DNA from: Acidimicrobiales bacterium
Lineage (GTDB): Bacteria > Actinomycetota > Acidimicrobiia > Acidimicrobiales > Aldehydirespiratoraceae
Assembly (NCBI GenBank): GCA_963422745.1
Contig: OY730477.1
Span: 1,272,880 to 1,336,879 of the forward strand
DNA: 64,000 nt
Direction: 5' to 3'
The number at the start of each line of letters is the position of its first letter. Position 1 is the first letter of the stretch. This document shows positions 2,010 to 62,385 of this stretch, in pieces. Under the pieces are notes generated by a model. It ran no database searches, was not told the origin of the DNA, and saw only the letters and a list, made by a program, of their open reading frames with translations. Made by a program: the position numbers and the translations under genes.

Positions 2010-2437
2010 TGGACCTGCTGTGGTGCGCTGTCGAACCCTATCTTGAAGCTGTCTGGAGATACATGGGCCGCCTGTTGGTGGTGTGCTGTCGGGCCCGCCA
2101 CCGCCGCCTTACATTTGTCGCATGGCAGCCGTTTGGACCTGTTGGTGGTGTGCTGTGGGGCCCTATCTTGAGGCTGTCTGGAGATACATGGGCGGCCGTT
2201 TGGACCTGTTGGTGGTGTGCTGTGGGGCCCTATCTTGAGGCTGTCTGGAGATACATGGGCGGCCGTTTGGACCTGTTGGTGGTGTGCTGTGGGGCCCTAT
2301 CTTGAGGCTGTCTGGAGATACATGGGCGGCCGTTTGGACCTGTTGGTGGTGTGCTGTGGGGCCCTATCTTGAGGCTGTCTGGAGATACATGGGCGGCCGT
2401 TTGGACCTGTTGGTGGTGTGCTGTCGAACCCTGTCAG
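2010..2437. repeat. 67-bp tandem minisatellite: 4 identical units (2134-2401), one truncated unit and degenerate units upstream
   Basis: Direct reading shows the unit TGGACCTGTTGGTGGTGTGCTGTGGGGCCCTATCTTGAGGCTGTCTGGAGATACATGGGCGGCCGTT starting at 2134, 2201, 2268, 2335 and 2402. Both array ends carry CTGTCGAACCCT. Confidence 0.95.
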
Positions 2438-2560
2438 ATTAGTTGAAGTCGGATGCCAGTAGTGATGTTGGGTGATTGTGTTGAGATGGTGTCCGAAGCG
2501 GCTCAAGCGCCGAACAGCGGATGCACAGGTTTCATTTCGCCAAGGGTCACCGGGCATGAT

Positions 2561-3361
2561 ATGAGAATGAACGCTGAACGTCTGATGGCGTTGTTCGGTC
2601 TCAACGATAAACGTGCCTTGGTGACAGGCGGCAGCCGAGGCATCGGCGCCATGATCGCCGAGGGTCTGCTTGACGCGGGCTGCGAAGTGCTCATCTCGGC
2701 GCGCAAGGCCGACCAGATCGCCGCAACCGTCGAAAGGCTCGGCGCCAAAGGCAAGATCTCCGGTGTCGCCGCCGATCTGTCCACCGACGAAGGCGTCAAG
2801 CGCCTCGTAGCTTTCGTGGCTGAGCGTTGGGATTCGCTGCACATTCTCTGCAACAATGCGGGCGCGGCCTGGGGTGAACCGATAGATACGTTTCCGCCCC
2901 ATGGTTGGGACAAGGTGATGAACGTCAACGTACGCAGCGTGTTTTTTGTCACCCAATCGCTGCTGGGGTTGCTGAGGGCCGGGGCTTGCGCAACGGCACC
3001 CGCCCGGATCATCAACACAGGCTCTGTGAATGGTCTTACCCCGCCGGACTCGGATGCCTTCTCGTATTCGTCATCAAAGGCCGCCGTACATATGTTGACC
3101 CGTCACCTGGCAAAGCAACTCGCCCCGGAGCACATAACTGTCAACGCCATCGCGCCTGGGCCGTTCGATTCACAGATGATGGCGTATGTGCTCGATGATC
3201 CGGTAGCTCGGTCCTTGATCGCGGCGGAAGTTCCGTTGGGCCGGATCGGCGTACCCGACGACATGGCCGGTGTGGCTGTCTACCTCGCCTCAACCGCTGG
3301 CGCATATGTCACCGGTGCGGTGATCCCGGTGGGGGGCGGATTGTCAGTCGTTGCCGGGTAG
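2561..3361 (+). CDS. short-chain dehydrogenase/reductase (classical SDR)
   Basis: Contains the TGGSRGIG cofactor motif and the YSSSK catalytic YxxxK. ATG 2561 lies inside ORF 2453..3361, whose upstream part runs into the repeat array. Confidence 0.85.
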   Translation: MRMNAERLMALFGLNDKRALVTGGSRGIGAMIAEGLLDAGCEVLISARKADQIAATVERLGAKGKISGVAADLSTDEGVKRLVAFVAERWDSLHILCNNAGAAWGEPIDTFPPHGWDKVMNVNVRSVFFVTQSLLGLLRAGACATAPARIINTGSVNGLTPPDSDAFSYSSSKAAVHMLTRHLAKQLAPEHITVNAIAPGPFDSQMMAYVLDDPVARSLIAAEVPLGRIGVPDDMAGVAVYLASTAGAYVTGAVIPVGGGLSVVAG

Positions 3362-4558
3362 TCGGCGCAGGCGAACCGGCAGAGACTTGAGTGAGTTGTT
3401 GAGGTTGGACCGCTGACGGCTCGGATCGCCTGACAAATGAAGCTCGGGCCAGCGTTGGAGTACCTCCTCAAAGAAGATCCGACCTTCAAGTCGGGCGAGG
3501 TGCACACCCAAACAGAAGTGCGCGCCGATACCGAATGAGAGGTGAGGGTTCGGGTTGCGTCGCACATCAAACGTGTGTGGATCGTCAAACACCGCATCGT
3601 CACGATTTGCCGACGTGTACACCATCGCCACTTTGTCACCCGCCGCGATATCAACCCCGGCCAGGGTTGTGTTGGTCATCGCTGTGCGCCGGAAGTAGTG
3701 CAAGGGGTTAGCCCAACGCAGGATCTCATCTACCGCGCCCGGCAATAGCCCATGATCGGCTCGTACCGCGGCGAGCTGATCGGGATGCGACAATAATGCC
3801 AGCATCCCAGAGGACAGCATTGTTCGGGTGGTGTCGTTACCGGCAGTGACCAGCTGGACGAAGAACCGGCCGAATCCAATGTCGGTCATCGCAGCGCCTT
3901 CAAACTCACTGCTGAGAAGTAGGTCAGTCAGGTCTCCGAGGGGCTCATGGCAGCGCCTTTCGGCTGCGAACTGCATGGCGTAAGCCGCCATCTCCATGCT
4001 CGAACTTCCCCGATTATTGCTTTCGGCGATATCGGGATCCTGACCGCCGCTGTTGCGCTCAGCCAATGCGTGGATGTAGCCCCAGTCCTGTTTGGGTAGC
4101 CCGAGAAGCTCACCAATCACCTGGCTCGGCAGATGAGCACAAACATCATGGACGAACTCAATCTCGTCGCCGAGCGTCTCTGCCCGATCCAGGATCTGTC
4201 GAGTGATCTCTCGAATCCGTACCTTGAGACCGTCAATGACTCTGGCCTTGAACTCCGGTGCGAGCGGACGTCGGTAGGCGGTGTGGCGGGGTGGGTCCAT
4301 TGCTAGCAACATGTCGCGCATGTTTTGCAGTGACACGGGATCGAGATCCTCAACCACGACGCCTCCCTGCGCGGCACTAAAGATCTCGGTGTGTCGGGAT
4401 ACGTGGACGACGTCGTGGTACTTAAGCACGGCCCAGTAGCCGGGCTCGTCGTCCATGTCGACCCAGACGACGGGCTGCGTTCGTCGCAGTTCCTCGAACA
4501 GTTCGTGGGGAGGTCCGTTGACGTACGTTTCTGAGCGAGCAATGACCGCAGGTGACAT
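3344..4558 (-). CDS. cytochrome P450
   Basis: Contains the heme-thiolate loop FGIGAHFCLGVHLARLE, the I-helix AGNDTT and an EILRW (ExxR) motif. ATG at 4558, with an adjacent GTG at 4561. Confidence 0.9.
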   Translation of the reverse strand: MSPAVIARSETYVNGPPHELFEELRRTQPVVWVDMDDEPGYWAVLKYHDVVHVSRHTEIFSAAQGGVVVEDLDPVSLQNMRDMLLAMDPPRHTAYRRPLAPEFKARVIDGLKVRIREITRQILDRAETLGDEIEFVHDVCAHLPSQVIGELLGLPKQDWGYIHALAERNSGGQDPDIAESNNRGSSSMEMAAYAMQFAAERRCHEPLGDLTDLLLSSEFEGAAMTDIGFGRFFVQLVTAGNDTTRTMLSSGMLALLSHPDQLAAVRADHGLLPGAVDEILRWANPLHYFRRTAMTNTTLAGVDIAAGDKVAMVYTSANRDDAVFDDPHTFDVRRNPNPHLSFGIGAHFCLGVHLARLEGRIFFEEVLQRWPELHLSGDPSRQRSNLNNSLKSLPVRLRRLPGND

Positions 4559-4724
4559 CACGGCATCAACAATATCGTTTGCTGAGTAGGGGAATCCTTG
4601 ATTGTTGCAATAAGGATCGTTGGGTCGACGGCCTTGCGGAATCCGCGGTTCGGACTGCTACGGTCACTGATTGGCTACGAACCAGGCGACGATTCGTGGG
4701 GAAGACTCCTAGGAGGCGCAACGC

Positions 4725-4997
4725 ATGGCAACAGGTCGATCCAGTTTCGCGAAGCGTCAGCGGGACATGGCCAAGAAGGCGAGGGCGGCGGCGAAACGCG
4801 AAAAGCGATTGGACCGTGACAGCGCGGTTGGTATTGACGAGCCGGGCGACAGCGATGCGAGGGGACCGACACTCTCCAACGACGAGATAATGGCGAGGGT
4901 TGCCGAACTTCACCGTCGTTATGACGACGGACAGATGGATCTCAACACTTTCGACGAAGAAAAGACTGCCCTCATGGCGCAGTTTTCCATTGACTGA
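4725..4997 (+). CDS. small conserved-looking protein with a basic N-terminus and a SHOCT-like C-terminal helix pair
   Basis: A canonical AGGAGG (4711-4716) lies 8 nt before ATG 4725. The C-terminus VAELHRRYDDGQMDLNTFDEEKTALMAQ resembles the SHOCT motif. Confidence 0.6.
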   Translation: MATGRSSFAKRQRDMAKKARAAAKREKRLDRDSAVGIDEPGDSDARGPTLSNDEIMARVAELHRRYDDGQMDLNTFDEEKTALMAQFSID

Positions 4998-6786: not shown

Positions 6787-6811
6787 GGCGCAACAATGCC
6801 CTGCGAACTCC

Positions 6812-7073
6812 CGCGACACCAAACACTGCCCGGCCGTACCCGCCGTCCTCGTCCTCTCGATCTCTCGCGACACCAAACACTGCCCGCCCGCACCAAGTCT
6901 GGGAATGATGCCATTAGCGGCTGCGATCTCCCCGCGACACCAAACACTGCCGGCCCGTACCCGCCGTCCTCGTCCTCTCGATCTCTCGCGACACCAAACA
7001 CTGCCCGCCCGCACCAAGTCTGGGAATGATGCCATTAGCGGCTGCGATCTCCCCGCGACACCAAACACGGATT
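6812..7073. repeat. 121-bp tandem repeat (2 units plus a partial third) containing the 20-nt motif CGCGACACCAAACACTGCC five times
   Basis: The motif starts at 6812, 6866, 6933, 6987 and 7054 (spacing 54/67/54/67). The two full units differ at 2 positions. Confidence 0.9.
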
Positions 7074-7112: not shown

Positions 7113-8213
7113 ATGAAGGTGCTTGTTATGGGCGGAACCCGGTTCAATGGTCTGGCATTGGTGCGCGAACTCGTCATCCAAGGTCACGAGGTCACGATCT
7201 GCAATCGCGGCCGTACGCAAGCCGAGTTGCCCGAAGGCGTTCAACGCCTGATCGCCGATCGTAGCGACCACGACCGTCTCTGTGAGGTGCTGGGCAGCGG
7301 GGACTTTGATGTCGTTCACGACATGACCGCTTATCACCCCGAAGACGTCGACATCATGATCAAAGTGCTTCATGATCGTGTCGGTCACTACATCTTCGCT
7401 AGTTCAACGGTGACCTACCAGAGCAAGGACACGATCATCACCGAGGATGATCCCGACGAACGCGGCCCGACTCAGATCGAGTACGGCCTACACAAGCTGC
7501 TGTGCGAGGACCGCCTGTTTGAGGCACACGCCGAGCTGGGATTCCCCGCCACCAGCGTGCCGTTCTCCATGGTTGTCGGTCCCCACAACGCTATGACCGA
7601 CCGTGAGCAACGCATGTTCAAGCGTTTGATCGATGGCCGTCGGGTCTTGATACCCGGCGACGGCTCGACGCTTCTGCAGCTTGGCGATGTCGGAGACCAG
7701 AGCCGAGCCCTGGTGGCGATGATGGGCCAGCTACAGACCTTCGGGCGGCGCTACAACCTAACCGGAGCGCACCCATTGACCCGCAACGAATACGTGGCGA
7801 CCATTTCGGGGATCGTCGGGCGCGAAGCCGAGGTGCGGTTCGTTCCCGATAACCTGATGGAAGACCTTTGGACGGGTCGTCGACCCGTCGACATTGGCCC
7901 GCCCAGCGGCACGCTTGATGTCCGACCGAGTTCACCTGACAAACCCGAGGATCCTCGAGCGATGCTGCGAACCCGGTTCTTGTTGTGCCTCAACCTGATT
8001 CAGCAGCTGGCGCCGAACATCCACTGGTGGGATCAAGACACGGTCTTTGGGATCAACCGGCTGCGGTCCGACATTGGCTGGGTACCGACCGAAACCACCG
8101 AATCAATGTTGGACCGCGCCTATCGCTGGTGGCATGACAGCGGTGGCGTTGACTTTGCCTACGATTGGGATGCTGAGGATCGGATTCTGGCGATGATTCC
8201 CGCAGCTAGCTGA
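7113..8213 (+). CDS. NAD-dependent epimerase/dehydratase family protein (extended SDR)
   Basis: MKVLVMGGTRFNGLALVREL is a Rossmann GxxGxxG N-terminus. ATG 7113 lies inside ORF 7026..8213. Confidence 0.8.
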   Translation: MKVLVMGGTRFNGLALVRELVIQGHEVTICNRGRTQAELPEGVQRLIADRSDHDRLCEVLGSGDFDVVHDMTAYHPEDVDIMIKVLHDRVGHYIFASSTVTYQSKDTIITEDDPDERGPTQIEYGLHKLLCEDRLFEAHAELGFPATSVPFSMVVGPHNAMTDREQRMFKRLIDGRRVLIPGDGSTLLQLGDVGDQSRALVAMMGQLQTFGRRYNLTGAHPLTRNEYVATISGIVGREAEVRFVPDNLMEDLWTGRRPVDIGPPSGTLDVRPSSPDKPEDPRAMLRTRFLLCLNLIQQLAPNIHWWDQDTVFGINRLRSDIGWVPTETTESMLDRAYRWWHDSGGVDFAYDWDAEDRILAMIPAAS

Positions 8214-8251
8214 GCGCCGACATCGGCGTCGCAGTGGTTGATTCCTTTAGC

Positions 8252-8429
8252 CGGGGCGCTCGTACGTTTGACGCGGTGGCTGGTTCTTTCTGATCGGGGC
8301 GGCTTATTCGTTTGACGCGGTGGCTGGTTCTTTCTGGCCGGGGTGGCTGGGTTCTTCTTGGCCGGGGCGGCTTGTTCGTTTGACGCGGTGGCTGGTTCTT
8401 TTGACCGGGTAGCTGGGTATTGCTTGACG
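8252..8429. repeat. 43-44-nt tandem repeat (3 full units, one internally deleted 24-nt unit, one partial unit)
   Basis: Units CGGGGCGGCTTGTTCGTTTGACGCGGTGGCTGGTTCTTTCTGGC start at 8252, 8295, 8339 (short), 8363 and 8406. The array lies between two convergent genes. Confidence 0.85.
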
Positions 8430-10700: not shown

Positions 10701-10858
10701 GCCGCCTCCAAATTCAGCCCGTAGTCATTGCTGGTGGACTCGTGATTGTCACAGGGTCCGGCGCCTCAACACCGGTCCGGTTTCGTGCTGCGGGGAGGAG
10801 CCTGTTGTGATCAAACGAGGATGCTGTCGTTCAGCCGGATCAAATTGATCGCTTTCTG

Positions 10859-10949
10859 CAGCATTGACCTAGGACCGAGTCCGCATTTGACCACATCAAT
10901 CGGGTCACCGAAATTGGTGGTCTACAGCATTGAACTAGGACCGAGTCCG
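10859..10949. repeat. 25-nt direct repeat, 66-nt offset; one copy is the last 6 codons plus stop of the MFS gene
   Basis: CAGCATTGACCTAGGACCGAGTCCG (10859-10883) and CAGCATTGAACTAGGACCGAGTCCG (10925-10949) differ by 1 nt. The MFS stop codon (CTA at 10935-10937 on +) lies in the second copy. Confidence 0.85.
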
Positions 10950-12446: not shown

Positions 12447-13181
12447 ATGGACCCAAAGAGCACGATGGACCCCAAGAGCACGGACAACGGTATGGACCCT
12501 GAAACCGTCATGAGCATGCTTGAAGAATCTGGCAGTGCCCAAACTCGCCGAATTTATCTGCGCCACGGTGCTGGTGAGCCAGTATTCGGGGTGAGCTACG
12601 GCGAGTTGAACCGCCTGGCCAAAAAGATCAAGACCGACCATGCACTCGCCGTTGACTTGTGGGCAACGGGCAATCACGATGCCAGGGAGCTTGCCGCAAA
12701 GATTGTTGACAAGGACCGTGTGACCAAGGCCTTGGCCCGAAGGTGGCTGGCTGACACCGATAACTATGTGTCAATGGGGTCGGTTGCGGGTGTGGTGGCG
12801 AACTCTCCGCATGCCCGTGAATTGAGCGACGAATGGCGGGATCAAAGTCGGGAATGGACTGCGGCAGCAGGGTGGTTGTTGGTGGCGTATTGCGCCGAAC
12901 GATCTGATGTCTTCTCCGGTGATGATCTGGGGTTGATGTTGCAGCAAATCGAGACCGAGATCCATGATCGGGCGAATCGGGTACGCCACGAGATGAATCA
13001 GGCACTGATCGCGATTGCTCTGCGTGATGAGGATCTGCGCAAACAGGCCATTGACGCGGCCGGTCGTATAGGCACGGTGATGGTTGATCACGGCCGAACC
13101 GGGTGCAAGACTCCCGATGCTGTGAGCTACATCAACAAAACCGTGGCTTACCGCGCCCGGCGTGCCGCACGAAACAGGTAA
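12447..13181 (+). CDS. DNA alkylation repair protein (AlkD-like HEAT-repeat family)
   Basis: QTRRIYLRHGAGEPVFGVSYGELNRLAKKIKTDHALAVDLW matches the N-terminal pattern of the family. The start is uncertain (ATG 12447, 12465 or 12492); the first two ATGs lie in an 18-nt tandem duplication. Confidence 0.7.
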   Translation: MDPKSTMDPKSTDNGMDPETVMSMLEESGSAQTRRIYLRHGAGEPVFGVSYGELNRLAKKIKTDHALAVDLWATGNHDARELAAKIVDKDRVTKALARRWLADTDNYVSMGSVAGVVANSPHARELSDEWRDQSREWTAAAGWLLVAYCAERSDVFSGDDLGLMLQQIETEIHDRANRVRHEMNQALIAIALRDEDLRKQAIDAAGRIGTVMVDHGRTGCKTPDAVSYINKTVAYRARRAARNR

Positions 13182-13191
13182 CGGACGGCCA

Positions 13192-14103
13192 TCAAAGCGG
13201 CGCTATGTCGAAGCGGAATGGAGCTGGCCGGTGATTTGGCGGCCCGGCTCGATGGAACTTGATCATCCGAACTACCCGCTGACGATGACCCGCGAAGGGT
13301 TCGAGCAACTCAAGCATGCGGTTGTCGTCTCCTACTGTGCCGTTGAGGGTGTAGGTAACCATGGCGGGAATGTGCAGATCGCCTACTGGCACCGCGTCGG
13401 GATCACCCACTGCGACCGAGGTCGTCAGCGCAGCGGTCCAAGTGCCGACGCCTGGTAGTTGTCGCAGCCAATCACCGGCTTCGTTCGGGGATAGGTCGCC
13501 CAGGCGCTCAAGTCTGTCGGCGTATTTTGCAGCTATGCGCAGGACACGGGCGCGGCTGCGCTCTATGCCAGCACTGTGGAACTGGTGATCCGTGACGCGA
13601 AGCAATGCCTCGGGCGTCGGAAATGCAGGTAAAGGTCCGCCTAATGTGTTGTCTCCGAACCGGTGTAGCAACCGGAAGCGTGATGTTGTTGCGTCCGCCT
13701 TCACGACCCGTTGCCCTATAGCTGCGGTAGCGAGCGCCTCGTACCAGCGGTGTGTGGAGCCAAGGCGGGGCACACCCACGGACTGCTGTAGACGTCGAAT
13801 AATGGGATGGTCGGTAATGAAGTCCTTCGCGGTTTCGTCCCGGTCGCCGATGAGAGCCGGAAATCGTGCGATCATCCATTCGGTGCCCAAACCCCATGCG
13901 TCGACTCGCAGTGTCTCGCCCGCAACCCTGAACGCCATCAGTCCGACTCCGTCGGGGGTCGTGGTTGACCACCAGTAGACGCCGCGGCGGCGACGGACTG
14001 TCTTGGCACCCATCACTGCAAACCCGACGTTGAGTTTCTGACGGGGTCGGTAGGTGAAAGAGGCGGCAGGCGGCCCTGGCGGTTTCGGATCGGGTTGGCT
14101 CAC
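13192..14103 (-). CDS. DNA-3-methyladenine glycosylase II-like (HhH-GPD superfamily)
   Basis: Contains the helix-hairpin-helix LRQLPGVGTWTAAL followed by an Asp-containing VPVGDLH. The GTG start overlaps the upstream stop (GTGA at 14100-14103). Confidence 0.7.
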   Translation of the reverse strand: MSQPDPKPPGPPAASFTYRPRQKLNVGFAVMGAKTVRRRRGVYWWSTTTPDGVGLMAFRVAGETLRVDAWGLGTEWMIARFPALIGDRDETAKDFITDHPIIRRLQQSVGVPRLGSTHRWYEALATAAIGQRVVKADATTSRFRLLHRFGDNTLGGPLPAFPTPEALLRVTDHQFHSAGIERSRARVLRIAAKYADRLERLGDLSPNEAGDWLRQLPGVGTWTAALTTSVAVGDPDAVPVGDLHIPAMVTYTLNGTVGDDNRMLELLEPFAGHRQRVVRMIKFHRAGPPNHRPAPFRFDIAPL

Positions 14104-14939
14104 CCAGCGGTTAGGTGTTTTGAGACGTTGTGCACGGATCCTGATTTGTAACTGGCCGCTGGTGTCGAAGCCGAATTGCGGCGAGAGATCCAGGATTGGA
14201 TCGGCGTGTCAATGACGATCACACCTGCGACCAAGGCCATGGCGGCGATGATGTCAAGCCACCAGTGGTTGGCGGTTATCACGACGGCGGCGATCATCAA
14301 AGCGGGATGAGCAAGGGCGAGATAGCGATGAAGGGTTGAGCCAGCCCGGATGATTGCCCATGCACCGATGAGCGCCCAACCGACGTGCAGCGACGGCATG
14401 GCCGCGATTTGGTTCGCCGTGGAGGCGATCGTTTCGCTGTCGTAGATCTTCGGTCCGTGGGTCTGAAGAGTGTCAACGAAACCCATGTCGGGAAACCACC
14501 GCGGCGGAGCCAGCGGGAAAATAAGGTGAACCCCCAATGCGATGAACGTGACGCCGAACATCACGCGTCGAATCCGGCCGTAATGGTCGTAGTGGCGGAT
14601 ATAGAGCCACACCAAGAACACCACGGTTCCGGTGAAGTGGGCGAAGAAGTAGTAGCGGTTGAGCAGCCAAACGAGAGCATCATTGTCCAACACGGCCGCC
14701 TGGATACGTACCTCGTTGAAGATCCCGAGCGCCTGTTCCCAATCGACGATGGTGTGGGAGTTGGTGATCGCCTCGCCGATCTCGTCTTTGACGATGAGTC
14801 GCACGAGCCGGTACAGCAGGAAACCACCGATGATCAGCGTCAGTTCACGGCCGAGACGCCAACCGAAACGCGAATCGCGGTTCGGATCGGTACTTGAGGA
14901 ACCGCCATGCAGGTCAATGGTGACACCAGTCATCTGCAC
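14100..14939 (-). CDS. PAP2-superfamily membrane protein (Aur1/Ipt1-like PAP2_C type)
   Basis: Polytopic, with the AAMPSLHVGWA motif typical of that PAP2 branch. The start is GTG 14939 or ATG 14933. Confidence 0.65.
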   Translation of the reverse strand: MQMTGVTIDLHGGSSSTDPNRDSRFGWRLGRELTLIIGGFLLYRLVRLIVKDEIGEAITNSHTIVDWEQALGIFNEVRIQAAVLDNDALVWLLNRYYFFAHFTGTVVFLVWLYIRHYDHYGRIRRVMFGVTFIALGVHLIFPLAPPRWFPDMGFVDTLQTHGPKIYDSETIASTANQIAAMPSLHVGWALIGAWAIIRAGSTLHRYLALAHPALMIAAVVITANHWWLDIIAAMALVAGVIVIDTPIQSWISRRNSASTPAASYKSGSVHNVSKHLTAG

Positions 14940-14950
14940 CTCCGTCGTCT

Positions 14951-15056
14951 AGCAATGAACGCTAACAGATGTGGTTCATTCTGTGCCCGGCCCCATCAGA
15001 CGTTCTTGTTCCCGGTAGCAATGAACGCTAACGGATGTGGTTCATTCTGTGCCCGG
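14951..15056. repeat. 40-nt direct repeat, 66-nt offset, each copy holding a 7-13-7 inverted repeat AATGAAC-N13-GTTCATT
   Basis: AGCAATGAACGCTAAC(A/G)GATGTGGTTCATTCTGTGCCCGG occurs at 14951-14990 and 15017-15056. The second copy contains the stop and last 4 codons of the 15042..15461 gene. Confidence 0.9.
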
Positions 15057-15461
15057 CTGGTTGTCTGGCAGTTGGTCGGCCGTCTCCGATGCGTCAAGGG
15101 CGTCAACCAAGGCCTGAAGATACTCCAGCACGTCACGATCGTCGGCATCGGCCTGCATGCGGTACTGCGCGATCGCCTCGTCAATAGCTGTGGCTGTGTT
15201 TGGTCCATTCAGACCGTCAATCACTCCGGGATCAAATCCTAGCCGGTGGAGGTGTCCTTGAATCACCAGCACCTCGTCACCGGTTAGCGGATCGTCCGAT
15301 TCCTTCTGCTCCACAGAGGTGTCTTCATCAACTGGCACGGCAACCAAGGCCCCATCGGGGCCAAACGCCTCCTCCACGACCGGCGCAGCGAAACGCGTCG
15401 CGGTTATCAGCGCTATGGCTACGATCAGCAGCAGGAACAGACCTTGGATGTGGCTGTGCAT
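15042..15461 (-). CDS. membrane-anchored protein with a peptidoglycan-binding (PG_binding_1) domain
   Basis: VLVIQGHLHRLGFDPGVIDGLNGPNTATAIDEAIAQY matches the PG-binding repeat. The hydrophobic anchor GLFLLLIVAIALI follows ATG 15461. Confidence 0.65.
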   Translation of the reverse strand: MHSHIQGLFLLLIVAIALITATRFAAPVVEEAFGPDGALVAVPVDEDTSVEQKESDDPLTGDEVLVIQGHLHRLGFDPGVIDGLNGPNTATAIDEAIAQYRMQADADDRDVLEYLQALVDALDASETADQLPDNQPGTE

Positions 15462-15478
15462 CACAAGATTCTCATGGG

Positions 15479-15811
15479 CTATTCGGGTCGATTGCGGCGG
15501 CGGCCGATGAGACGTGATCGGATGTCTGAACAGGTGGGACAAATCGGGTACCTGTCAGGGTCACGGTGCGGAACCCAAACCTTCCCGCACAGCGCCTGCA
15601 CGGGTGTGCCCTCAACGGCGGAGCGGGTAGCGTCAGCCTTTCGGACATAGTGAGCGAATCGGTCGTGGTCGCCGTTGTCGGTGACGGGTTTCGTAATCGT
15701 CTCGGTGACCGGCAGCGTTGGTAGCTGAATCGGATCGGGCATGGCCTCAAGTATGGCGTCAGTTGACCGGCGTGCTGGCTCATTCGGGGTCTGAGTCCAG
15801 TGTCCACCCAA
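15479..15811 (-). CDS. DUF3039-family protein (actinobacterial conserved)
   Basis: Contains GDHDRFAHYV ... ALCGKVWVPHRDPDRYPICPTC, the characteristic DUF3039 block. ATG 15742 is an alternative start. Confidence 0.7.
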   Translation of the reverse strand: MGGHWTQTPNEPARRSTDAILEAMPDPIQLPTLPVTETITKPVTDNGDHDRFAHYVRKADATRSAVEGTPVQALCGKVWVPHRDPDRYPICPTCSDIRSRLIGRRRNRPE

Positions 15812-15838
15812 TTCAGAAGTTCCTTCTTCGGCGGACCG

Positions 15839-17335
15839 TTAGCGACTCAATGCCCGCAGGGCCTCAAGGGTGTCGGCTTCGGAGGCTGGCTTGCTGTGCC
15901 GGTACCGCACGACCCGTGCGAATCGCAGTGCTATCGCACCGGGATAGCGAGTGGAGTGCTGCACGCCGTCGATCGCAACCTCGACTACCTGGATGGGCCG
16001 CAACCGCACAACCCAACCGTTGTCGTTGATCGCGAGTTCACCGAAGCGCTTGGTTTGCCACCGCAAGATCTGATCGGTCATCCCTTTGAAAGTTTTGCCC
16101 ACCATCACGAAGCCGCCGTCGGGACCTCGAGCGCCAAGATGGATGTTGGACAGCATTCCTTGTCGCCGACCGCTGCCGTGCTCCACCGCTAGCACGACGA
16201 GGTCGAACCGATGCACCGGTTTCACCTTTCTCCACGCGTTGCCTCGACGTCCCGCGTTGTAGACGGATCCGGCGGCCTTCACCATCACCCCTTCATGGCC
16301 GAGAGTGAGAGCCTCGTCGAGTACGCCTTGGCCAGCCTCGGGATCGTCGGTAACGATCCCTGGAATTCTGTGTCTGCCTACCACCGACTCCAGTCGCTCG
16401 AGACGGGTCGTTAGGGGCTCGTCAATCAGCGTGACTCCGTCATGATGCAACAGATCAAAGAAGAACGAATCCACGGCGGTTCTGTTGGACATCGTGTCCT
16501 GAAACGCAAGTGGAGCGCCTTCGGGGCTGGTACCGAGAGCCTCGCCGTCGAGCACAAGTTGTTGCGCGGGCAAGGCTGCGACGGTCTCGACGATTTCGCT
16601 GACACGTTCGGTGATGTCGTTGAGGTTGCGAGTCCAGACCCGCACACGATCATGTTGTTTGTGGACCTGGATCCGGATGCCGTCAAGTTTCCACTCCACT
16701 GACGCTGACCCGAGATCAGCAATCGCATCGGCCACGCTTGCCGCGGTTGACGCAAGCATCGGCCGGATCGGTGTATGCAGCCTCAGATCGACCGCCTTGA
16801 GTCCGGGGCGGCCCTGTCGCATGGCGATTTCCGCTGCAGTCGCGAGGTCACCGGACAGCATCACCGCGCGCTTGAGAAGCCCCGACGGTACACCGGCGGC
16901 CTTGGCCACAGCCTCGGTGACGATCCCCTCGTTGGCACCTTGGCGCAATTCACCGACAAGAAGGCGGCGCACAAAGTCGGCCTCCGCCTCAGTGCAACGC
17001 GTCAAGAAACTCTCGAGCAATTCTCGACGGGTTCCCTGCGCGCCCTTGCCGCGGGTGCGGGCAAGCTGTGTCAGCAGATCGTCGAGATCGGTGAGGTTGA
17101 GGGTCGCATTGGCGCTGACGGTGGAACTCGTCTTGTCGACTGCAGCCCATCCGACTCCGATTCGACCCTGACGAGGGTTGCCAGCGATCACCCCGACCAC
17201 CACCGCCATCTCGGTGCCCGACGCCGACTTCAACAACTCGGCCAGCCGTTGGATCTTCACCCCGCGCGCTGCGGTAGCGGCGACCGCCTCAGTTGTGTCA
17301 ACCAAATCTATCAGTCTCACCGGTCCCAGTCCCAT
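15839..17335 (-). CDS. ATP-dependent DNA ligase
   Basis: Contains the adenylation motif EWKLDGIRIQVH (KxDG) and downstream EGVMVK and RRGNAWRKVKP motifs. Confidence 0.9.
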   Translation of the reverse strand: MGLGPVRLIDLVDTTEAVAATAARGVKIQRLAELLKSASGTEMAVVVGVIAGNPRQGRIGVGWAAVDKTSSTVSANATLNLTDLDDLLTQLARTRGKGAQGTRRELLESFLTRCTEAEADFVRRLLVGELRQGANEGIVTEAVAKAAGVPSGLLKRAVMLSGDLATAAEIAMRQGRPGLKAVDLRLHTPIRPMLASTAASVADAIADLGSASVEWKLDGIRIQVHKQHDRVRVWTRNLNDITERVSEIVETVAALPAQQLVLDGEALGTSPEGAPLAFQDTMSNRTAVDSFFFDLLHHDGVTLIDEPLTTRLERLESVVGRHRIPGIVTDDPEAGQGVLDEALTLGHEGVMVKAAGSVYNAGRRGNAWRKVKPVHRFDLVVLAVEHGSGRRQGMLSNIHLGARGPDGGFVMVGKTFKGMTDQILRWQTKRFGELAINDNGWVVRLRPIQVVEVAIDGVQHSTRYPGAIALRFARVVRYRHSKPASEADTLEALRALSR

Positions 17336-17484: not shown

Positions 17485-18549
17485 TCAGTGGATTAGTTCG
17501 AGGGCACCGAGATCAATGATCTGGGCTGCGCTTCGTTCAGCCATCGCCATGAACATCTCGTCGCCGCGTTTGGTGCGGCCGACCATAATACTGCCGAGCG
17601 CGGTGATGAACGGTCCCTGGAAAGCTCCGTGGGCATACATCAACCCAAGTTGGTCGTCGTCAAGGATCACACCAGCGTCGGCCATGGCGTTGCCATAAGC
17701 ATCGAGCGTTGCTTGCTCGTGGCGTCTGCGATCGGTTGGTTCAGACGAGTTCCCCAGCAGATAAGCGAGGTCACGGCCGCCCGATCCGAGACCGAGCGTC
17801 TGCCAGTCGACCGCGGTCACAGCGGCTGCGCCACAACTGGGGGCGAACATGAGGTTGTCCAGTCGATAGTCGCCATGAACGAGAGTGATGTCGGTGGGTT
17901 GGCGCGCGATCCAGTTTCCGCACTTGGCTCCGAATTCACCGAGCACCATCTGTGCGCGCTTGGACATACGGTCTGAGTAGCGTTCCAGGAAGATCGGCAT
18001 GACGACCTCAATGTAGGCAACCGCCTGCTCCCCGCTTGATGCGAGCCAGCCGATCTGTGTGAGTTCGGGGTCGTTCCATCGTGGTCCGTGCAGACCCGCC
18101 AGGTTGGTAGCTGCAGTTATTACCTGTTCGTCGGTCGCGCCAGCGATCTGATCACCCTGCATAGCCGGGGCTAAGTCCTCGAGCACCAACGTGAAGGTGC
18201 TGGAGTCCTCGGACACATCGCCGTGAAAGCAGCGCGGCACCGACACGGTAAGTGTGGAGGCCAGTTCCTGGTAGAAGCGGACTTCGGTGAGGTAGCCACC
18301 GGATGCGCCAGCGGCTCGGCTCGTCTCGTCCGGTGACGGGAACTTGATGACAATCGAGTTAGGTGCTGGCATAGAACCTGCGGCGTAGCACAGCAAGTAG
18401 CGCTCAAGGTGGGCCATCTGGCCGGTGCCGACAGCGCTACGTCGGAATGACCCGACCACAACATCGTGGCCCGAGCTTTGCATGATGGCAGTGAGCCATT
18501 CGGCGCTGACCTCGGCGGGATCTTCAAGTATCGGCAATTCGCTGTTCAC
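17485..18549 (-). CDS. phosphotransferase-family kinase (APH/choline-kinase-like fold)
   Basis: Contains the catalytic loop LVHGDYRLDNLMF and AVDWQ. The start is uncertain: GTG 18549 (10 nt after the ABC-F stop), GTG 18576 or ATG 18483. The ORF extension to 18759 overlaps ABC-F and is rejected. Confidence 0.7.
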   Translation of the reverse strand: MNSELPILEDPAEVSAEWLTAIMQSSGHDVVVGSFRRSAVGTGQMAHLERYLLCYAAGSMPAPNSIVIKFPSPDETSRAAGASGGYLTEVRFYQELASTLTVSVPRCFHGDVSEDSSTFTLVLEDLAPAMQGDQIAGATDEQVITAATNLAGLHGPRWNDPELTQIGWLASSGEQAVAYIEVVMPIFLERYSDRMSKRAQMVLGEFGAKCGNWIARQPTDITLVHGDYRLDNLMFAPSCGAAAVTAVDWQTLGLGSGGRDLAYLLGNSSEPTDRRRHEQATLDAYGNAMADAGVILDDDQLGLMYAHGAFQGPFITALGSIMVGRTKRGDEMFMAMAERSAAQIIDLGALELIH

Positions 18550-18559
18550 ATTGGCCCCA

Positions 18560-20293
18560 TCAACGATTTCGTACACGAACCCTGTTTGGGGTGATCTTGC
18601 GGGCCTTGGCGGGAACTGCTTTTTGGGATGAAGACCGGGCCTTAGCGGTTGTGGTGGACTGTTTCGTGTTCGATCGTGTTTCGGTGGTTGGCTCTGCGCT
18701 GTTCCCAGCAGGGGTGAGTACCTTTTCGGGTACCCCGTCGTAGTAAGTGGCATGGCCATTGCGGACGTCGATGACTGCGTCGGCGACGTTGCGGATGAGG
18801 TGCCGGTCGTGGGTGATAAGCAACACGGTGCCGGGATAAGCCATCAGCGCGTCCTCCAAGACGTCGCAAGATGGTAGGTCGAGATGATTGGTGGGCTCGT
18901 CGAGAACCAGCAGGTTGACAGGCTCGATCATGGCTCGAGCCAACCCGAGACGCGTTCGTTCCCCGCCCGACAGGTCACCTACGAGCCGGTCAGCAGCGTC
19001 GCCTGGGAACCCGAACGATCCGAGCACACTGCGCATATTTCGCCTGTGGGGATCGATACCGGCCCACATTGTCGCGATGACTGTTGTGTGGGGGTCGAAC
19101 TCATCGGCTTGGTGCTGATGAAACGCCGCCACCTTCACGTTGTCGGCCAGTGCCGCCCGTCCCCGCCAGGCTGGGATCTCGCCTGTGATGAGCCGCACAA
19201 GGGTTGTCTTGCCGACACCATTCGGGCCCACAAGCGCTACCTTTTGGCCGCGTTCCACGGTGAGGTTCACCTCTGAGAGGACCAGTTTGCCGTCGTAGCC
19301 ACCAGAGGCTTCGGTGAGTTCCGCAACCACCCTCGACGAGCGCGGAGGATCTGCGAACGCGAATCGGGCTACCAGCTCTGAGCGGTCGGGCACCCGGATC
19401 ATCTCGAGCTTGCGCAGAGTCTTGAGCCGGCTCTGGACCTGGCGGGCTTTCGTTGCCTTGTAACGGAATCGGTTGATGAAGCGTTCGATGTGTGCGACTT
19501 CGCGGGTCTGACGAGCGGCTGAAGCCTCAAAACGGGCAATGCGCTCCTCGCGGGCGACGACGAACTCCGCGAACCCTCCCACATACTCCAAAGACGTGCC
19601 TTCAGCCAACTCAACAACGCGATCCGCAACGGCATCGATGAAGTCGCGGTCGTGGCTCACAAACAGCAAGGCGCCGGGCCATGCCGCCAATTGCTTCTCG
19701 AGCCAGGCCACTGAATCCACATCGAGATGGTTGGTGGGTTCATCAAGCAGCAAAATGTCTGGTTCAGCCACCAAGAGTCGAGCCAAGGCGACCCGCATGC
19801 GCCATCCGCCTGACAGTTCCCTAAGCGGTCGATGAGCTGCGTGCACCTCGAATCCCAGGCCCGCCAGCACCCTGTGGGCCTTGGCCTCTAGGGCGTAGCC
19901 GCCCATCATCTCGAATCGTGCCTGCACGTCGCCATAGTCAGCCAACACCTGAACAGTGTCGAGTTGAGGATCCTCCATGCAACGCTGGAGTTCGTCGCGG
20001 CGCCGGGCTAGATCGGCCAGTTCACCGGCTCCGCTAAGCACCTCGGTGAGAACCGTGCCTGTGTCCGCTGCGATCAGGTCCTGGGGCAGGTATCCAATCG
20101 TCATTGTGCTTGGTCGAGTGATCGACCCTTCGTCGGGTTCCGCACGACCCGCGAGGATTTCCATTAGGGAGGTCTTGCCCGTGCCGTTGCTGCCTACGAG
20201 CGCGATTCGACGACCCGCCGACAGTCGAAGGGTGACCTCGGTGAACAGTTTGCGCGACCCAAACGAACGGCCGAGCCCAGAGGCGGTAAGCAT
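18560..20293 (-). CDS. ABC-F family ATPase (two ABC cassettes, no TM domain) with a basic C-terminal tail
   Basis: Contains Walker [10 protein letters not shown] and GPNGVGKTT, and signatures LSGGWRMR and [11 protein letters not shown] 20293 follows the surE stop. Confidence 0.9.
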
Positions 20294-21128: not shown

Positions 21129-21260
21129 CGATTGACCCTACCCGCACCCACTGATGACGGCTCCCGATTCGATGAGCCAGCGAACCTGGACACGTCGATC
21201 AGCGCAAGCCGAACTTGGGTCTGTTGCCGACCTTTGTGTCACGGGGAAGACCTCAGATGG

Positions 21261-21823: not shown

Positions 21824-21831
21824 ATCGGCTG

Positions 21832-27094: not shown

Positions 27095-27164
27095 CCGGCG
27101 AGCTGAAACGGCTCCGCGGGGTCCCCGGCAGGTGCATCGTAAATTGGCGTTCAGCACAACAAGG

Positions 27165-34100: not shown

Positions 34101-34124
34101 GCAAACGCCGTTAGCCTGTTGGTG

Positions 34125-35627
<1,503 letters not shown>

Positions 35628-53952: not shown

Positions 53953-54120
53953 CATTCGGCGCTTGTGGGTTCGGGCGCCACCACACCACAAGCGGCTTCG
54001 GACAGTGGTACCATCCGATGTGACGTTCGCACCCGAATTCGGATGAGGCGTGGCCCCTGGCCACGCTTTTTTTGATATTGGCTCGCTCAAGCGGATGCGT
54101 CGCCAAGCCCTTTCAAATCC

Positions 54121-60304: not shown

Positions 60305-60476
60305 GCCCGGTGCTGGCCCGGTAGCGTTTCGTGGGCTGTTTGCGGGATTGACGGCGAATTGATGGGTGTCTACTGACGGGACCCGACAGGTGCTCGACTG
60401 GTTGTCATCGTCTCACCAACCCGCGGCGGTTCGCTCGCTCAGTGTTAGGCCCGGTGCTGGCCCGGTAGCGTTTCAC
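60200..60476. repeat. 144-bp-offset tandem duplication: the last 105 nt of truB plus 28 nt downstream are repeated once (133 nt, 7 mismatches)
   Basis: Copy 1 is 60200-60332 and copy 2 is 60344-60476. They differ at 7 positions, including CCGACG to CTGACG. Confidence 0.9.
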
Positions 60477-60481
60477 CGCTT

Positions 60482-61435
60482 ATGAAGATTCTCCGGGACC
60501 GAACCGACCGACTGCCCCGAACCATTGAGGTGGCGTCCACGATCGGTGTGTTTGATGGTGTTCACGTCGGGCACCAGGAAATTCTTCGGACCGTTCGCGC
60601 AGTGGGCGATCGAATCGGGGTCGAATCGGCTGTCGTGACTTTCGACGGGCACCCCGCACATGTGGTACGACCGGAGAGCGCGCCTTTGCTGTTAACGAGC
60701 CTTGAGCAGAAACTTGAGCTGATTGAGGCGCAGGGCATTGACTATGCCTACGTAATCAACTTTGACGAGGAGCGGGCGGCCACAGGGCCCGAAGCCTTCG
60801 TTGGGCAGGTATTCATCGAAGCTCTTCACGCCAAAGCGATCGTGGTAGGCGTCGATTTTCATTTCGGGGCTCGCCGCTCCGGCAACGTAGTTGCGCTTGC
60901 TCATCTCGGTGAGATCTGGGATTTTGAAGTTCACGCTCTTGAATTGATCCACCACAGCGACAAGGCACGCGAGCCGGTGTCGTCGACGAAAATACGCCGA
61001 GCACTCGCTGGTGGCGATGTTGAGAGAGCCGCGGCGATGCTCGGGCGTCACCATGAGGTGCGTGGCGTCGTTTGTCACGGCGATCGAAGAGGTCACCAGA
61101 TCGGGTTTCCGACCGCCAACATTCCGGTTCCCAAGAACATGGCTTGGCCTGCCGATGCGGTTTACGCTGGCTGGTGCAGGCTTGATGACGGCTCACTGCA
61201 TCCCTGCGCAATTAACATCGGCCGGCGCCCGACGTTTCATGAACATTCTGAGCAGTCGCTACTTGAGGTTCACCTGATCAACTTCAGCGGTGACCTCTAC
61301 GGTCAGCAACTCGCTGTGTCCTTTGTGGCGTTCCTTCGTAGCGAACGCAAGTTCCAAGGCGTAGACGAACTGGTAGAACAACTCAATACCGACGTCGCCG
61401 ACGCCCAATCGCTGTTGACCGAAGCGAACCGCTGA
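60482..61435 (+). CDS. ribF: bifunctional riboflavin kinase / FMN adenylyltransferase
   Basis: Contains GVFDGVHVGHQ, GFPTAN and the C-terminal riboflavin-kinase domain. Confidence 0.95.
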   Translation: MKILRDRTDRLPRTIEVASTIGVFDGVHVGHQEILRTVRAVGDRIGVESAVVTFDGHPAHVVRPESAPLLLTSLEQKLELIEAQGIDYAYVINFDEERAATGPEAFVGQVFIEALHAKAIVVGVDFHFGARRSGNVVALAHLGEIWDFEVHALELIHHSDKAREPVSSTKIRRALAGGDVERAAAMLGRHHEVRGVVCHGDRRGHQIGFPTANIPVPKNMAWPADAVYAGWCRLDDGSLHPCAINIGRRPTFHEHSEQSLLEVHLINFSGDLYGQQLAVSFVAFLRSERKFQGVDELVEQLNTDVADAQSLLTEANR

Positions 61436-61436
61436 A

Positions 61437-62069
61437 ATGTTCACGGATCCCAACAAACACGCGACTATCCCCGGCGACGTCGTCGTCCGCTTCGCGTCGG
61501 CACGTGTACCAACCCGCCATGGCGACTTCACGGCCCATGCCTACCGCTCATCGGTTGACGGAACCGAGCATGTGGCATATGTGATGGGTGATGTTGACAG
61601 TGGTGCCCCGCCTCTTGTTCGGATGCACAGCGAATGTCTCACCGGTGACATTTTGGGGTCGATGCGTTGTGATTGTGGTGCGCAGCTCCGAGTTGCCTTA
61701 TCCATGATTGAGACTGAAAACCGCGGCGTGCTTGTCTATCTTCGCGGTCATGAGGGGCGCGGTATCGGGATCGGACACAAGCTCCGGGCCTACGCTTTGC
61801 AAGACGACGGTCTCGACACGGTGGAAGCCAACGAAGCGCAGGGACTGCCAGCAGATTCCCGATCCTACGGTGCGGGTGCGGGCATCCTGGCGGACTTGGG
61901 CGTGTCGCGGATTCGAATCATGACCAACAATCCCAAAAAGATTGACGAACTCAACTGGTGCGGCATTGACATAGTGCAGCGGGTGCCATTGTGGGTTGAG
62001 GCCAATCCCGAGAACGTCAGCTACCTCGAAACCAAGCGGACACGCATGGGTCACTACTTTGACAAGTAG
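61437..62069 (+). CDS. ribA: GTP cyclohydrolase II (stand-alone, no DHBP-synthase domain)
   Basis: Contains RMHSECLTGDILGSMRCDCGAQL (Zn cysteines) and EGRGIGIGHKLRAY. The start lies 1 nt after the ribF stop. Confidence 0.9.
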   Translation: MFTDPNKHATIPGDVVVRFASARVPTRHGDFTAHAYRSSVDGTEHVAYVMGDVDSGAPPLVRMHSECLTGDILGSMRCDCGAQLRVALSMIETENRGVLVYLRGHEGRGIGIGHKLRAYALQDDGLDTVEANEAQGLPADSRSYGAGAGILADLGVSRIRIMTNNPKKIDELNWCGIDIVQRVPLWVEANPENVSYLETKRTRMGHYFDK

Positions 62070-62129
62070 CAACCGATCAACAACAGCTAGCAACCGATCA
62101 ACAACAGCTAGCAACCGATCAACAACAGC
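62067..62129. repeat. 21-nt tandem repeat x3, each unit beginning with the ribA stop codon TAG
   Basis: TAGCAACCGATCAACAACAGC occurs at 62067, 62088 and 62109. All three TAGs are in the ribA frame. Confidence 0.95.
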
Positions 62130-62148
62130 GCTGGACATGGCTATGTCG

Positions 62149-62385
62149 CAGGACTGCCAATGGTTCGTGTCCGGGCTTGACGCCGAGCACCGTAACGTCA
62201 GCGCGTGAAGCCGTAGGACTGCCAATGGTTCGTGTCCGGGCTTGACGCCGAGCACCGTAACGTCAGCGCGTGAAGCCGTAGGACTGCCAATGGTTCGTGT
62301 CCGGGATTGACCGTAAGTGAGATTATCAACCCACTTGCCCCGTAGGACTGCCAATGGTTCGTGTCCGGGCTTGACGGTGTCGGCA
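62149..62385. repeat. 64-65-bp tandem repeat, 3 full units plus 1 partial; the first 29 nt are invariant (36-nt consensus core) and the remainder is less conserved
   Basis: GGACTGCCAATGGTTCGTGTCCGGG starts at 62151, 62216, 62281 and 62345. Units 1 and 2 are identical. Unit 3 has a different second half. Confidence 0.9.

Follow-up and report, generated by a model that had tools for sequence, protein, structure and literature searches.

Sequence-Unrelated Intergenic Direct Repeats Share a Spacing near 66 bp in a Chromosome Segment of an Uncultured Acidimicrobiia Bacterium

Introduction

Tandem repeats in the intergenic DNA of bacteria are usually handled as typing markers or as isolated curiosities. 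Among the closest described systems are the mycobacterial interspersed repetitive units (MIRUs), whose units contain small open reading frames (ORFs) that overlap the stop and start codons of the genes on either side. The typing loci of M. tuberculosis include units that are unrelated in sequence and bunched at about 51–59 bp, which is a loose precedent for a preferred period. Direct duplications of tens of base pairs are also formed during lagging-strand processing in flap-endonuclease mutants (yeast rad27 and the Pol I 5'-nuclease of E. coli). To our knowledge, there is no accepted answer to the question of what sets the size of small duplications in bacteria. Here, we analyze intergenic direct repeats in 64 kb of contig OY730477.1, called the window below, which make up about 2% of the 3.33-Mb chromosome of an uncultured member of Acidimicrobiia. 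The repeats of different spacers are unrelated in sequence, and many of them share a spacing of 63–68 bp.

[quoted passage not shown] According to the portions of the two sources that deal with integration, off-target events have spawned new arrays in E. coli (Nivala et al. 2018, described in bioRxiv 10.1101/148544), and the sites of integration are governed by the sequence and spacing of the repeat (PMC6698737).

Results

Spacing of the Direct Repeats

The sequence-only reading of this DNA had listed seven loci with direct-repeat spacings in one narrow band. Tandem Repeats Finder, a repeat tool, and a diagonal scan agree that all of these spacings are present, as are the other periods it had named (15, 19, 21, 43–44, 50, 125, 144, and 159), and they add one more locus at 8282 to 8350, where 44 + 24 nt give a spacing of 68 nt. 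At offsets of 10–400 the window contains 55 strong direct-repeat pairs, while each of five shuffles of the window (within 50-nt blocks) contains 0. In an unbiased scan of offsets from 12 to 300, the average is 0.25 loci per offset. It turned out that the richest 6-wide band in this range is exactly 63–68, with 12 locus-offset hits from 8 separate loci, or 16% of all hits. In a conservative test, each locus was allowed one spacing, and A2, R8251, and the patch at 21.2–21.8 kb (described below) were given their non-66 periods. In this test 5/16 loci fall in the 63–68 band, with a binomial P of 6e-5, and a scan statistic over every possible band gives P of about 0.009. The narrow band is real and statistically supported within the window. 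No non-coding peak at 63–68 is present in 80 loci of unrelated bacteria, and 80 Acidimicrobiales loci show only a small cluster at 61–62 bp, which belongs to a different, hairpin kind of repeat.

The arrays are intergenic, as had been proposed; they occupy, among others, the spacer upstream of ffh and those of rplS-yraN, ispG-rimP, and truB-ribF. The proposal that about one spacer in four carries an array is roughly right; we counted 11 of 56. Among the 16 spacers with 150 nt or more, 10 contain an array, and so do 5 of the 6 with 300 nt or more. All types of spacer are represented, namely divergent (A1, A2, A5, A6), convergent (R8251, A7), and co-directional (A3, A4, R38073, R53786, R60188).

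Two simple origins of the common spacing were tried and rejected. A base period of 22 bp with 66 as its triple does not fit the periods of 50, 54, 121–125, 144, and 159. Coding repeats do not fit either: with periods of 64, 65, and 67 the frame is not kept, and the ORF in A6, whose homologues were not searched, has a TTG start and no ribosome-binding site.

Conserved Blocks and Fillers

In A3, A4, A5, the last two units of A7, and R38073, sharp-edged blocks of 29–44 nt with 93–100% identity are combined with unrelated filler; block identity within the arrays overall is 88–100%. The description of 36–40 conserved nt followed by 26–30 drifting nt is right in substance, since the blocks are 37–38 nt long in four arrays and 40, 42, and 29 nt long elsewhere. 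The fillers comprise 24–37 nt, and one has only 17 nt. The sum of block and filler remains 65–67 nt even where the block has 29 or 42 nt. Ordinary tandem arrays coexist with this layout: A1 (67 bp), the first two units of A7 (65 bp), A2 (121), R53786 (50), R62067 (21), and R60188 (144). The 'variable' parts of A1 and A6 retain residual homology.

We compared the fillers with each other and with both flanks, gapped and ungapped and on either strand, and found no resemblance. No donor of a filler was found in the window on either strand, and an exact-match search of five fillers in one collection, IMG/VR, gave no match. The fillers were also considered as reversed, complemented, or reverse-complemented flanks. 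Only a single hit was obtained among 88 tests, in A4, and it was treated as chance. In this hit, the A4 filler at 14992–15015 is complementary to 15058–15081 in parallel register at 14/24 positions (shuffle p < 0.0005), which has no physical meaning and is probably a chance result among the 88. The 44-nt rplS copy described below was considered as the surviving core of an old 159-bp duplication and rejected; the residual homology of its flanks is not significant (z = 1.4).

Array A1 (2004–2431, plus strand) is flanked by a rhomboid gene (−) and an SDR gene (+) and consists of seven units, each about 67 bp long. Tandem Repeats Finder delimits a core at 2124–2424 with a period of 67, 4.5 copies, and 99% identity, and two older flanking copies begin at 2004. 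The four inner copies are identical, and the outer copies are older and have indels; in one of these outer copies a 28-nt tail is replaced. The A1 unit contains a module of GGAG, 4 nt, and the ATG of a 16-codon mini-ORF (MGGRLDLLVVCCGALS, then stop), which is located at 2181–2238 and recurs every 67 nt to 2442.

In A2 (6797–7068, plus strand), which has a luciferase-like monooxygenase gene (−, start 6786) on one side and an epimerase gene (+, start 7098) on the other, five blocks of about 38 nt are spaced 54, 67, 54, and 67 nt. They form a 121-bp super-unit in 2.2 copies, and the 67-nt spacings (6866 to 6933 and 6987 to 7054) are the second part of this unit, which is split as 54 + 67. The convergent spacer of the epimerase and acyl-CoA synthetase genes contains R8251 (8238–8418, plus strand), a G+T-rich region (fraction 0.73) with nested periods of about 22, 44, and 68 nt.

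Two arrays on the minus strand contain only two blocks each. The 29-nt block of A3 (10855–10949) is repeated after 66 nt (10855 to 10921) with a match of 27/29, and the 37 nt in between are not related to either flank. Its copy at 10921–10949 covers the stop codon of the MFS transporter gene (10935–10937). In A4 (14950–15057), a 42-nt block recurs after 66 nt (14950 to 15016; 41/42), with 24 unrelated nt in between. The copy at 15016–15057 includes the stop codon of a PG-binding-domain gene, and the other ends 16 nt before the PAP2 start at 14933. The A4 block has an ATGA stop/start overlap with the upstream gene, which could be due to chance.

The A5 region (21243–21830, plus strand) fills nearly all of the 700-nt divergent surE/aminotransferase spacer with nested repeats of periods 43, 125, 143, and 20. 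Within it, the two members of a 37-nt pair (21641 and 21707; 36/37 match) lie 66 nt apart, and a novel 29-nt filler stands in place of the usual continuation of the repeat family.

A6 (33721–34114, plus strand) comprises six units of 66, 35, 63, 66, 66, and 67 nt upstream of ffh, which starts at 34125. The spacing from 33763 to 33828 is 65–66 nt, and the positions 33863, 33926, 33992, and 34058 are separated by 63, 66, and 66 nt. All units have a common 16-nt 5' core, GGTTTGGTGCCTGCTC; a 37-nt block is common to three units, and the tails are mosaic. The start region of the minus-strand gene at 33220–33726 also has an exact 19-nt copy here, 89 nt away. As to the region 34047–34124, the recorded ffh product has 526 aa, and its start lies inside A6, whereas the products of relatives have 476–491 aa, and a start with MFDTLS at 34125 fits them. 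The recorded start was probably called too far upstream owing to A6.

The convergent ribA/metallophosphoesterase spacer contains A7 (62147–62405, plus strand), in which a block of 36–37 nt occurs four times, at 62147, 62212, 62277, and 62341 (spacings 65, 65, and 64). The first two fillers are identical, and the third and fourth are unrelated to them and to each other. Each block carries AGGA, 6 nt, and then ATG GTT CGT GTC CGG GCT TGA, which encodes MVRVRA and a stop, or MVRVRD and a stop in one copy. These modules lie at 62152–62180 and from 62217, 62282, and 62346, and the block spans almost exactly the distance from ribosome-binding site to stop codon. Mini-ORFs with a Shine-Dalgarno sequence are present in A1 and A7 only, and they may be due to chance. 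Just before A7, R62067 (62062–62129, plus strand) has three copies of a 21-bp unit without a mismatch, and the first opens with the ribA stop codon TAG. This unit equals seven in-frame codons from the TAG, as though it had grown out of the last codons of ribA.

Three further repeats are located at gene ends. A 44-nt stretch of rplS coding sequence (38073–38116) is copied exactly to 38232–38275 in the rplS-yraN spacer (R38073, 38073–38275, plus strand), and the spacer copy is preceded by 2.1 copies of a 19-nt unit resembling the 5' part of the 44-nt block. R53786 (53780–53962, plus strand) has 3.3 copies of a 50-bp unit in the ispG 3' region. We place it within the ispG 3' untranslated region because a strong intrinsic terminator at 54045–54069 (an 11-bp G+C-rich stem and then a T run, within 54045–54078) lies between the array and rimP. 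R60188 (60188–60475, plus strand) is a 144-bp tandem duplication, and its first copy contains the last 117 nt of truB. The first 70 nt of the two copies agree at 87% and contain 9 of 10 mismatches, and the 73 nt that follow show full identity, a milder form of the patchiness of the block-and-filler arrays; the chance of this pattern with evenly spread mismatches is (70/144)^9, or about 0.0015. The pattern suggests short-patch conversion or a second, later copying event.

Seven arrays are strongly G+T-rich on one strand and poor in A: A1, R8251, A6, R38073, and R53786 on the plus strand and A2 and R62067 on the minus strand. Their G+T fraction is 0.63–0.82, compared to 0.52 in the window.

Comparison of the Units with Each Other

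The sequence-only reading had stated that the units share no extended sequence, and this holds. Local alignment of 214 cross-array pairs on both strands and in every circular permutation gave a mean z of 0.2, and the best pair had 13–14 matches. No 6-mer occurs in six or more arrays. The hexamer GTTTGG is present once per unit in 4 of 12 arrays, with 20 hits against 3.1 expected from array length, a mild excess. When compared with the window by BLAST, every block and every filler matches its own array only. No common motif was found at the block edges, and searches of the arrays against Rfam (gathering score) and for tRNA gave no hits.

The units do not form a recognizable structure. They fold no better than shuffles (z from about 0 to +2), and no short-range inverted repeats were found above chance-level identity. 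Neither promoter-like nor terminator-like sites exceed the number expected from shuffles, and they have no systematic placement in the arrays. Duplicated promoters were considered since TTGAC is seen in many units; the scans show no enrichment, and arrays lie in convergent spacers as well. Terminators were rejected for lack of enrichment. A nucleosome-like wrapping code was rejected because no consistent 10–11 bp dinucleotide periodicity is present. A step of 66 bp corresponds to 6.29 helical turns, or a rotation of about 100 degrees per unit, and therefore successive units face different sides of the helix. The absence of a motif, fold, signal, or phasing, together with the presence of arrays in spacers of all orientations, makes a common reader and a promoter or terminator role unfavored. 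Thus, where a common generating mechanism or a common structural reader had been offered as alternatives, the evidence leans towards the generator. The reader loses ground with the missing motif, fold, and phasing, with the occurrence of arrays in all types of spacer, and with their absence in relatives.

Local Origin and Comparison with Relatives

The repeats arise locally. Several contain pieces of the adjacent genes: 44 nt of rplS copied 159 nt downstream, the last 117 nt of truB, the stop codons in A3 and A4, a gene start in A6, and the stop codon of ribA. All copies are in direct orientation. Template switching with strand inversion was considered and rejected, as no inverted copies were found.

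Gene order is kept in relatives. Five orthologous spacers are 0–73 nt long and repeat-free there, compared to 108–466 nt in the window. The truB-ribF spacer is 177 nt in the window and at most 35 nt in relatives, and the difference is the 144-bp unit. Between ribA and the phosphoesterase gene there are 466 nt in the window and 66–67 nt in the relatives L004 and L005. The spacer upstream of ffh has 398 nt in the window and 43–73 repeat-free nt in relatives, and the rplS-yraN spacer has 152 nt compared to 36–40 nt. The PG-binding/PAP2 spacer is 108 nt long, and in the relative L165 it is 57 nt long; the alignment leaves about 64–66 extra nt in the window, which is one unit. Repeat clusters with a period that is not a multiple of 3 have a density of about 125/Mb in the window and about 17/Mb in 80 Acidimicrobiales genomes (1.23 Mb). 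The region L075 15393–15492 was left out of the counts, because a run of N in truB gave a spurious 155-nt 'repeat' there. The arrays are specific to this lineage.

About 10 nt upstream of the ffh start, the motif TAGCCTG is kept in the window (34108–34124), in L164 (9985–10000), and in L162 (9988–10000), at an Ffh identity of 74%. The A6 array was added upstream of this conserved motif.

Small duplications at gene starts occur in related lineages also. In the closest relative in the PAP2 region (L166, 3755–3800), the ribosome-binding-site region of PAP2 is tandemly duplicated with a unit of about 19 nt that begins with ACGGAGGCGC. In Candidatus Microthrix (L009, about 18525–18565), a 13-nt unit, AAGCGTTGACCGA, occurs three times just downstream of ribA, in the same position as R62067 and with an unrelated sequence.

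The 61–62 bp cluster of Acidimicrobiales consists of tandem hairpins in L041 (Aquihabitans daechungensis DSM 27986; 7229–7350 and 15336–15600), L015 (4093–4214), and L063 (7954–8139). Their units of 61–62 bp (one of 66 bp) stand in 2–4 copies just after stop codons and are long, strong, imperfect palindromes with an inner stem. Their fold z ranges from −1.2 to −5.4 and is below −2.2 in 3 of 4. They were considered as the same phenomenon and rejected since they are hairpin elements. These hairpins may be an undescribed REP-like or terminator-like class with a preferred period of its own.

Host Genome and Neighboring Genes

The window has a G+C content of 60% and contains ordinary bacterial housekeeping genes together with genes for lipid and xenobiotic metabolism. 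The housekeeping set comprises ftsY, ffh, rpsP, rimM, trmD, rplS, rpsB, tsf, pyrH, frr, cdsA, dxr, rseP, ispG, rimP, nusA, infB, rbfA, truB, ribF, and ribA, and the genes of metabolism encode, among others, P450s, acyl-CoA synthetases, and a luciferase-like monooxygenase. Pfam was run on 50 of the 57 ORFs of the window, and the other genes were named by ORF and by matches in relatives. NusA is 81–85% identical to that of the nearest uncultured Acidimicrobiales/Acidimicrobiia genomes. A search of 5.8 billion proteins gave a best identity of 73–77% for RibA, Ffh, and the PAP2 protein. With the MFS protein as a query, no close relative was found in GTDB. In the JGI metagenomes the exact A7 block has no match, and the best identity for RibF is 53%.

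A cluster of DNA-repair genes is located beside A4 at 12447–17335; the products are an HhH-GPD glycosylase, an ATP-dependent DNA ligase, and a protein of DNA alkylation repair. At 26247–27160, an enoyl-CoA hydratase ORF is missing the first 50 or so positions of the Pfam profile, and the adjoining acyl-CoA synthetase ORF has about 145 surplus N-terminal codons. These oddities may reflect start-site ambiguity or gene decay.

Discussion

Since unrelated units share one spacing, their common length must originate in the process by which the repeats are made or kept. The explanation that we favor, holding it with about middling confidence, is a lineage-specific, minisatellite-like growth of non-coding DNA by direct-orientation duplication or copy-paste, for which lengths near 66 bp would be optimal; slippage, decay, and re-homogenization in patches would follow. 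An array would start on the spot from sequence in or beside the spacer, including the ends of neighboring genes, and the units of different spacers would be unrelated because each array would be seeded from its own local sequence. The process would act at short range and only in direct orientation, and it would add DNA mostly in steps of about 66 bp (63–68). In established arrays, slipped-strand mispairing or unequal exchange would add or remove whole units and could give the perfect 65–67 bp copies in A1 and A7. Substitutions and small indels would cause decay, and patches of about 30–75 nt would be re-homogenized or re-copied, leaving sharp identical blocks beside unrelated filler in a CRISPR-like layout. 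The additions would be neutral in spacers and gene ends and would build up there, as selection would purge such events from coding sequence. The shared spacing would then be the signature of a mutational process with a length optimum or ruler, and not of a shared element, reader, or function. [quoted passage not shown] Site sizes of 35, 56, and 65 nt are documented for SSB (PMC11558118, PMC4872115). In the literature, we found no publication linking the SSB wrap size to the length of duplications.

Several points weigh against this explanation. One tandem duplication gives two full copies and cannot make a block with unrelated filler, and therefore a further step, itself unproven, is needed for A3, A4, A5, and half of A7. 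If the filler were very old and the block alone had been re-homogenized, deletion between the direct repeats should have eliminated the two-copy arrays for the most part. The explanation does not account for the constant sum of block and filler (65–67 nt, with blocks of 29–42 nt), and the SSB idea alone does not account for novel fillers. The modules of ribosome-binding site and mini-ORF in two arrays leave room for a function in some of the arrays. Finally, the mode stands on 8 loci from 64 kb of 3.33 Mb, and neither a second strain nor a close relative was found in the collections searched (RibA, Ffh, and PAP2 at best 73–77%; nothing close in JGI). A more novel possibility is an undescribed insertion or duplication process with a built-in ruler, operating now or formerly in this lineage, which would place a target copy of about 37 bp and about 29 bp of new sequence per step of about 66 bp at arbitrary non-coding sites. 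We consider such a process unlikely. It is imaginable in two forms, one being a promiscuous CRISPR-type integrase that seeds proto-arrays genome-wide, the other a replication or repair intermediate sized by one fully wrapped SSB tetramer (35 or 65 nt).

The integrase idea has a specific version, in which promiscuous Cas1-Cas2 inserts off-target, duplicates about 36–37 bp, adds about 29 bp in a 66-bp step, and creates a new 'repeat' at each site. The geometry is class 2-like: blocks of 36–38 nt in A2, A5, A6, and A7 and fillers of 27–30 nt, sharp-edged and unrelated. The block with its novel 29-nt filler in the 21.6 kb patch (66 nt) resembles an insertion into an older repeat family, and A4 is about one 66-nt unit longer than its ortholog. 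However, the block length varies (29, 37, 37, 37–38, 40, 42, and 44 nt) and is inverse to that of the filler, so that the sum alone is constant, and an integrase ruler predicts the opposite. Spacings of 43–44, 50, 54, 89, 143, and 159 nt and a 17-nt filler also occur, and a number of arrays, such as A1 and A6, are simply tandem repeats whose 'spacers' retain residual homology. No cas gene was found by Pfam in 50/57 window ORFs (nusA, infB, rbfA, truB, ribF, rpsP, and the partial ORF 3–233 were not scanned), no Rfam CRISPR-DR match or block-edge motif was found, and the lack of exact IMG/VR matches for five fillers is weak negative evidence in the same direction. Eight loci per 64 kb would moreover imply hundreds genome-wide, and we regard this version as very improbable. 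Selection offers another route to a fixed length, if the blocks were binding sites or regulatory or translational modules whose spacing is held while the linkers drift; the common structural reader is one case of this. A conserved core with a drifting linker is typical of iteron or operator arrays, and in A6 the 16-nt core is present in all six units with diverged tails and lengths of 63–67 nt. The Shine-Dalgarno sequence, ATG, and short ORF with a stop in each A1 unit and A7 block, the ATGA overlap in the A4 block, and the strong G+T bias of many arrays on one strand would also agree with a function. Nevertheless, with eight unrelated blocks one would have to assume eight readers or a single one blind to sequence, and the units have no fold and no 10–11 bp phasing and, at 6.3 turns per 66 bp, do not keep in phase with the helix. 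Arrays are found both in 5' regions and in convergent 3' spacers, they are missing from the same housekeeping-operon spacers in all relatives examined, some blocks are mere copies of coding sequence (rplS, truB), and mini-ORFs are confined to two arrays. Function is conceivable for individual arrays and cannot explain the whole set; as a general account it is distinctly unlikely.

A common unit length would be expected by inheritance if all arrays were members of one dispersed family with a 66-bp unit, either of the MIRU kind or a tiny mobile element, that has diverged beyond recognition. GTTTGG, found once per unit in 4/12 arrays with 20 occurrences instead of 3.1, would agree with such a family. 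But the cross-array alignments are at background (mean z 0.2; best 13–14 matches in 214 pairs), several blocks copy the adjacent gene and not a family consensus, and no terminal inverted repeats or hairpins were found, which leaves this idea with very little chance of being right. The spacing could also be a coincidence or a matter of ascertainment, with periods near 66 picked out of the many that exist. The loci number only 8, three of them are sub-spacings of composite arrays, other periods are present, and the conservative scan-corrected P is just about 0.009. Against this, the unbiased scan of offsets 12–300 has its peak, with 16% of hits, exactly at 63–68, no non-coding peak occurs there in the 80 loci of unrelated bacteria, and Acidimicrobiales have only the 61–62 bp hairpin cluster. 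We consider coincidence quite improbable. An artefact of assembly or polishing in a long-read metagenome-assembled genome is barely credible. The source is known from one record only; the copies, on the other hand, differ by substitutions, indels, and fillers, and the 1,445-bp public unitig L001 (Logan, run ERR11641160), the sole further public trace of the organism, equals window positions 60445–61889 at 100%. Its left end lies exactly one 31-mer before the first copy-specific base past the identical block of R60188, where a k = 31 graph must branch.

In this genome, 10 of the 16 spacers of at least 150 nt owe their length to such repeats. If the mode is genome-wide, the chromosome would provide a natural data set, probably of hundreds of independent events, on what sets the size of small bacterial duplications; if it is not, this is merely a repeat-rich genome of local interest. 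Should a ruled process exist, the length ruler of a bacterial mutational process would be directly testable, and its integrase form would give a natural view of the birth of CRISPR arrays. For annotation, it matters that 66-bp layouts of block and filler can mimic short CRISPR arrays in automated procedures.

Comparison with Known Systems

The arrays belong to no named repeat family among those tested, and each of the known systems resembles them in part. Class 2 CRISPR arrays, with a 36-nt repeat and a 30-nt spacer giving 66 bp, are similar in layout to the direct repeats of about 37 nt and the unique, sharp-edged fillers of about 29 nt in the window, and 'neo-CRISPR' arrays, newly founded by off-target Cas1-Cas2 integration, are predicted to have a different 'repeat' at each ectopic site, as is the case here. 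In contrast to CRISPR, the window loci hold 2–7 repeats with blocks of 29–44 nt, and each locus has its own block. They have no common repeat, no fixed length of repeat or spacer, and no known DR family or fold; in the window we found no cas gene (50/57 ORFs scanned), CRISPR-DR match, leader-like or edge motif, or exact IMG/VR match for the five fillers searched.

The tandem hairpins of Acidimicrobiales and the repetitive extragenic palindromic (REP) and bacterial interspersed mosaic elements (BIMEs) are likewise intergenic, stand in 2–4 tandem copies, and have a period near the band of the window. Unlike the window units, which lack a fold and nearby inverted repeats, these elements and miniature inverted-repeat transposable elements are palindromic. 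Iteron and operator arrays differ by a common motif and by helical phasing, to which 66 bp (6.29 turns) does not correspond. Duplications derived from flaps would be similar if SSB coating of the flap could set a length threshold, which is a conjecture; nothing in the window shows a defect of flap processing. Generic slippage minisatellites share the head-to-tail direct repeats in non-coding DNA, units of at least about 10 bp, a local origin, and the pattern of identical inner and older outer copies seen in A1, but slippage alone sets no preferred length and makes no unrelated fillers.

The comparison with mycobacterial MIRUs and variable number tandem repeats (VNTRs), made in the sequence-only reading, is a fair analogy for the behavior of the arrays and does not amount to membership, as MIRUs are one sequence family and the window units are not. 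The MIRU-VNTR, ETR, and QUB loci are also actinobacterial tandem repeats with units of tens of base pairs, mostly intergenic and including sites inside operons (PMC3635867). The window arrays have tandem units of 40–100 bp in operon spacers, as MIRUs do, and they have no single consensus across loci. They further differ from MIRUs in their host (Acidimicrobiia, not Mycobacterium), in the mode of about 66 bp, and in the many arrays with a block and unrelated filler. Because unrelated local direct repeats sit about 66 bases apart, a length-limited duplication process is favored over a shared element or a known system. In their behavior, the arrays most resemble minisatellites of the mycobacterial type, and their distinctive points are a shared length without shared sequence and a CRISPR-like layout of block and filler.

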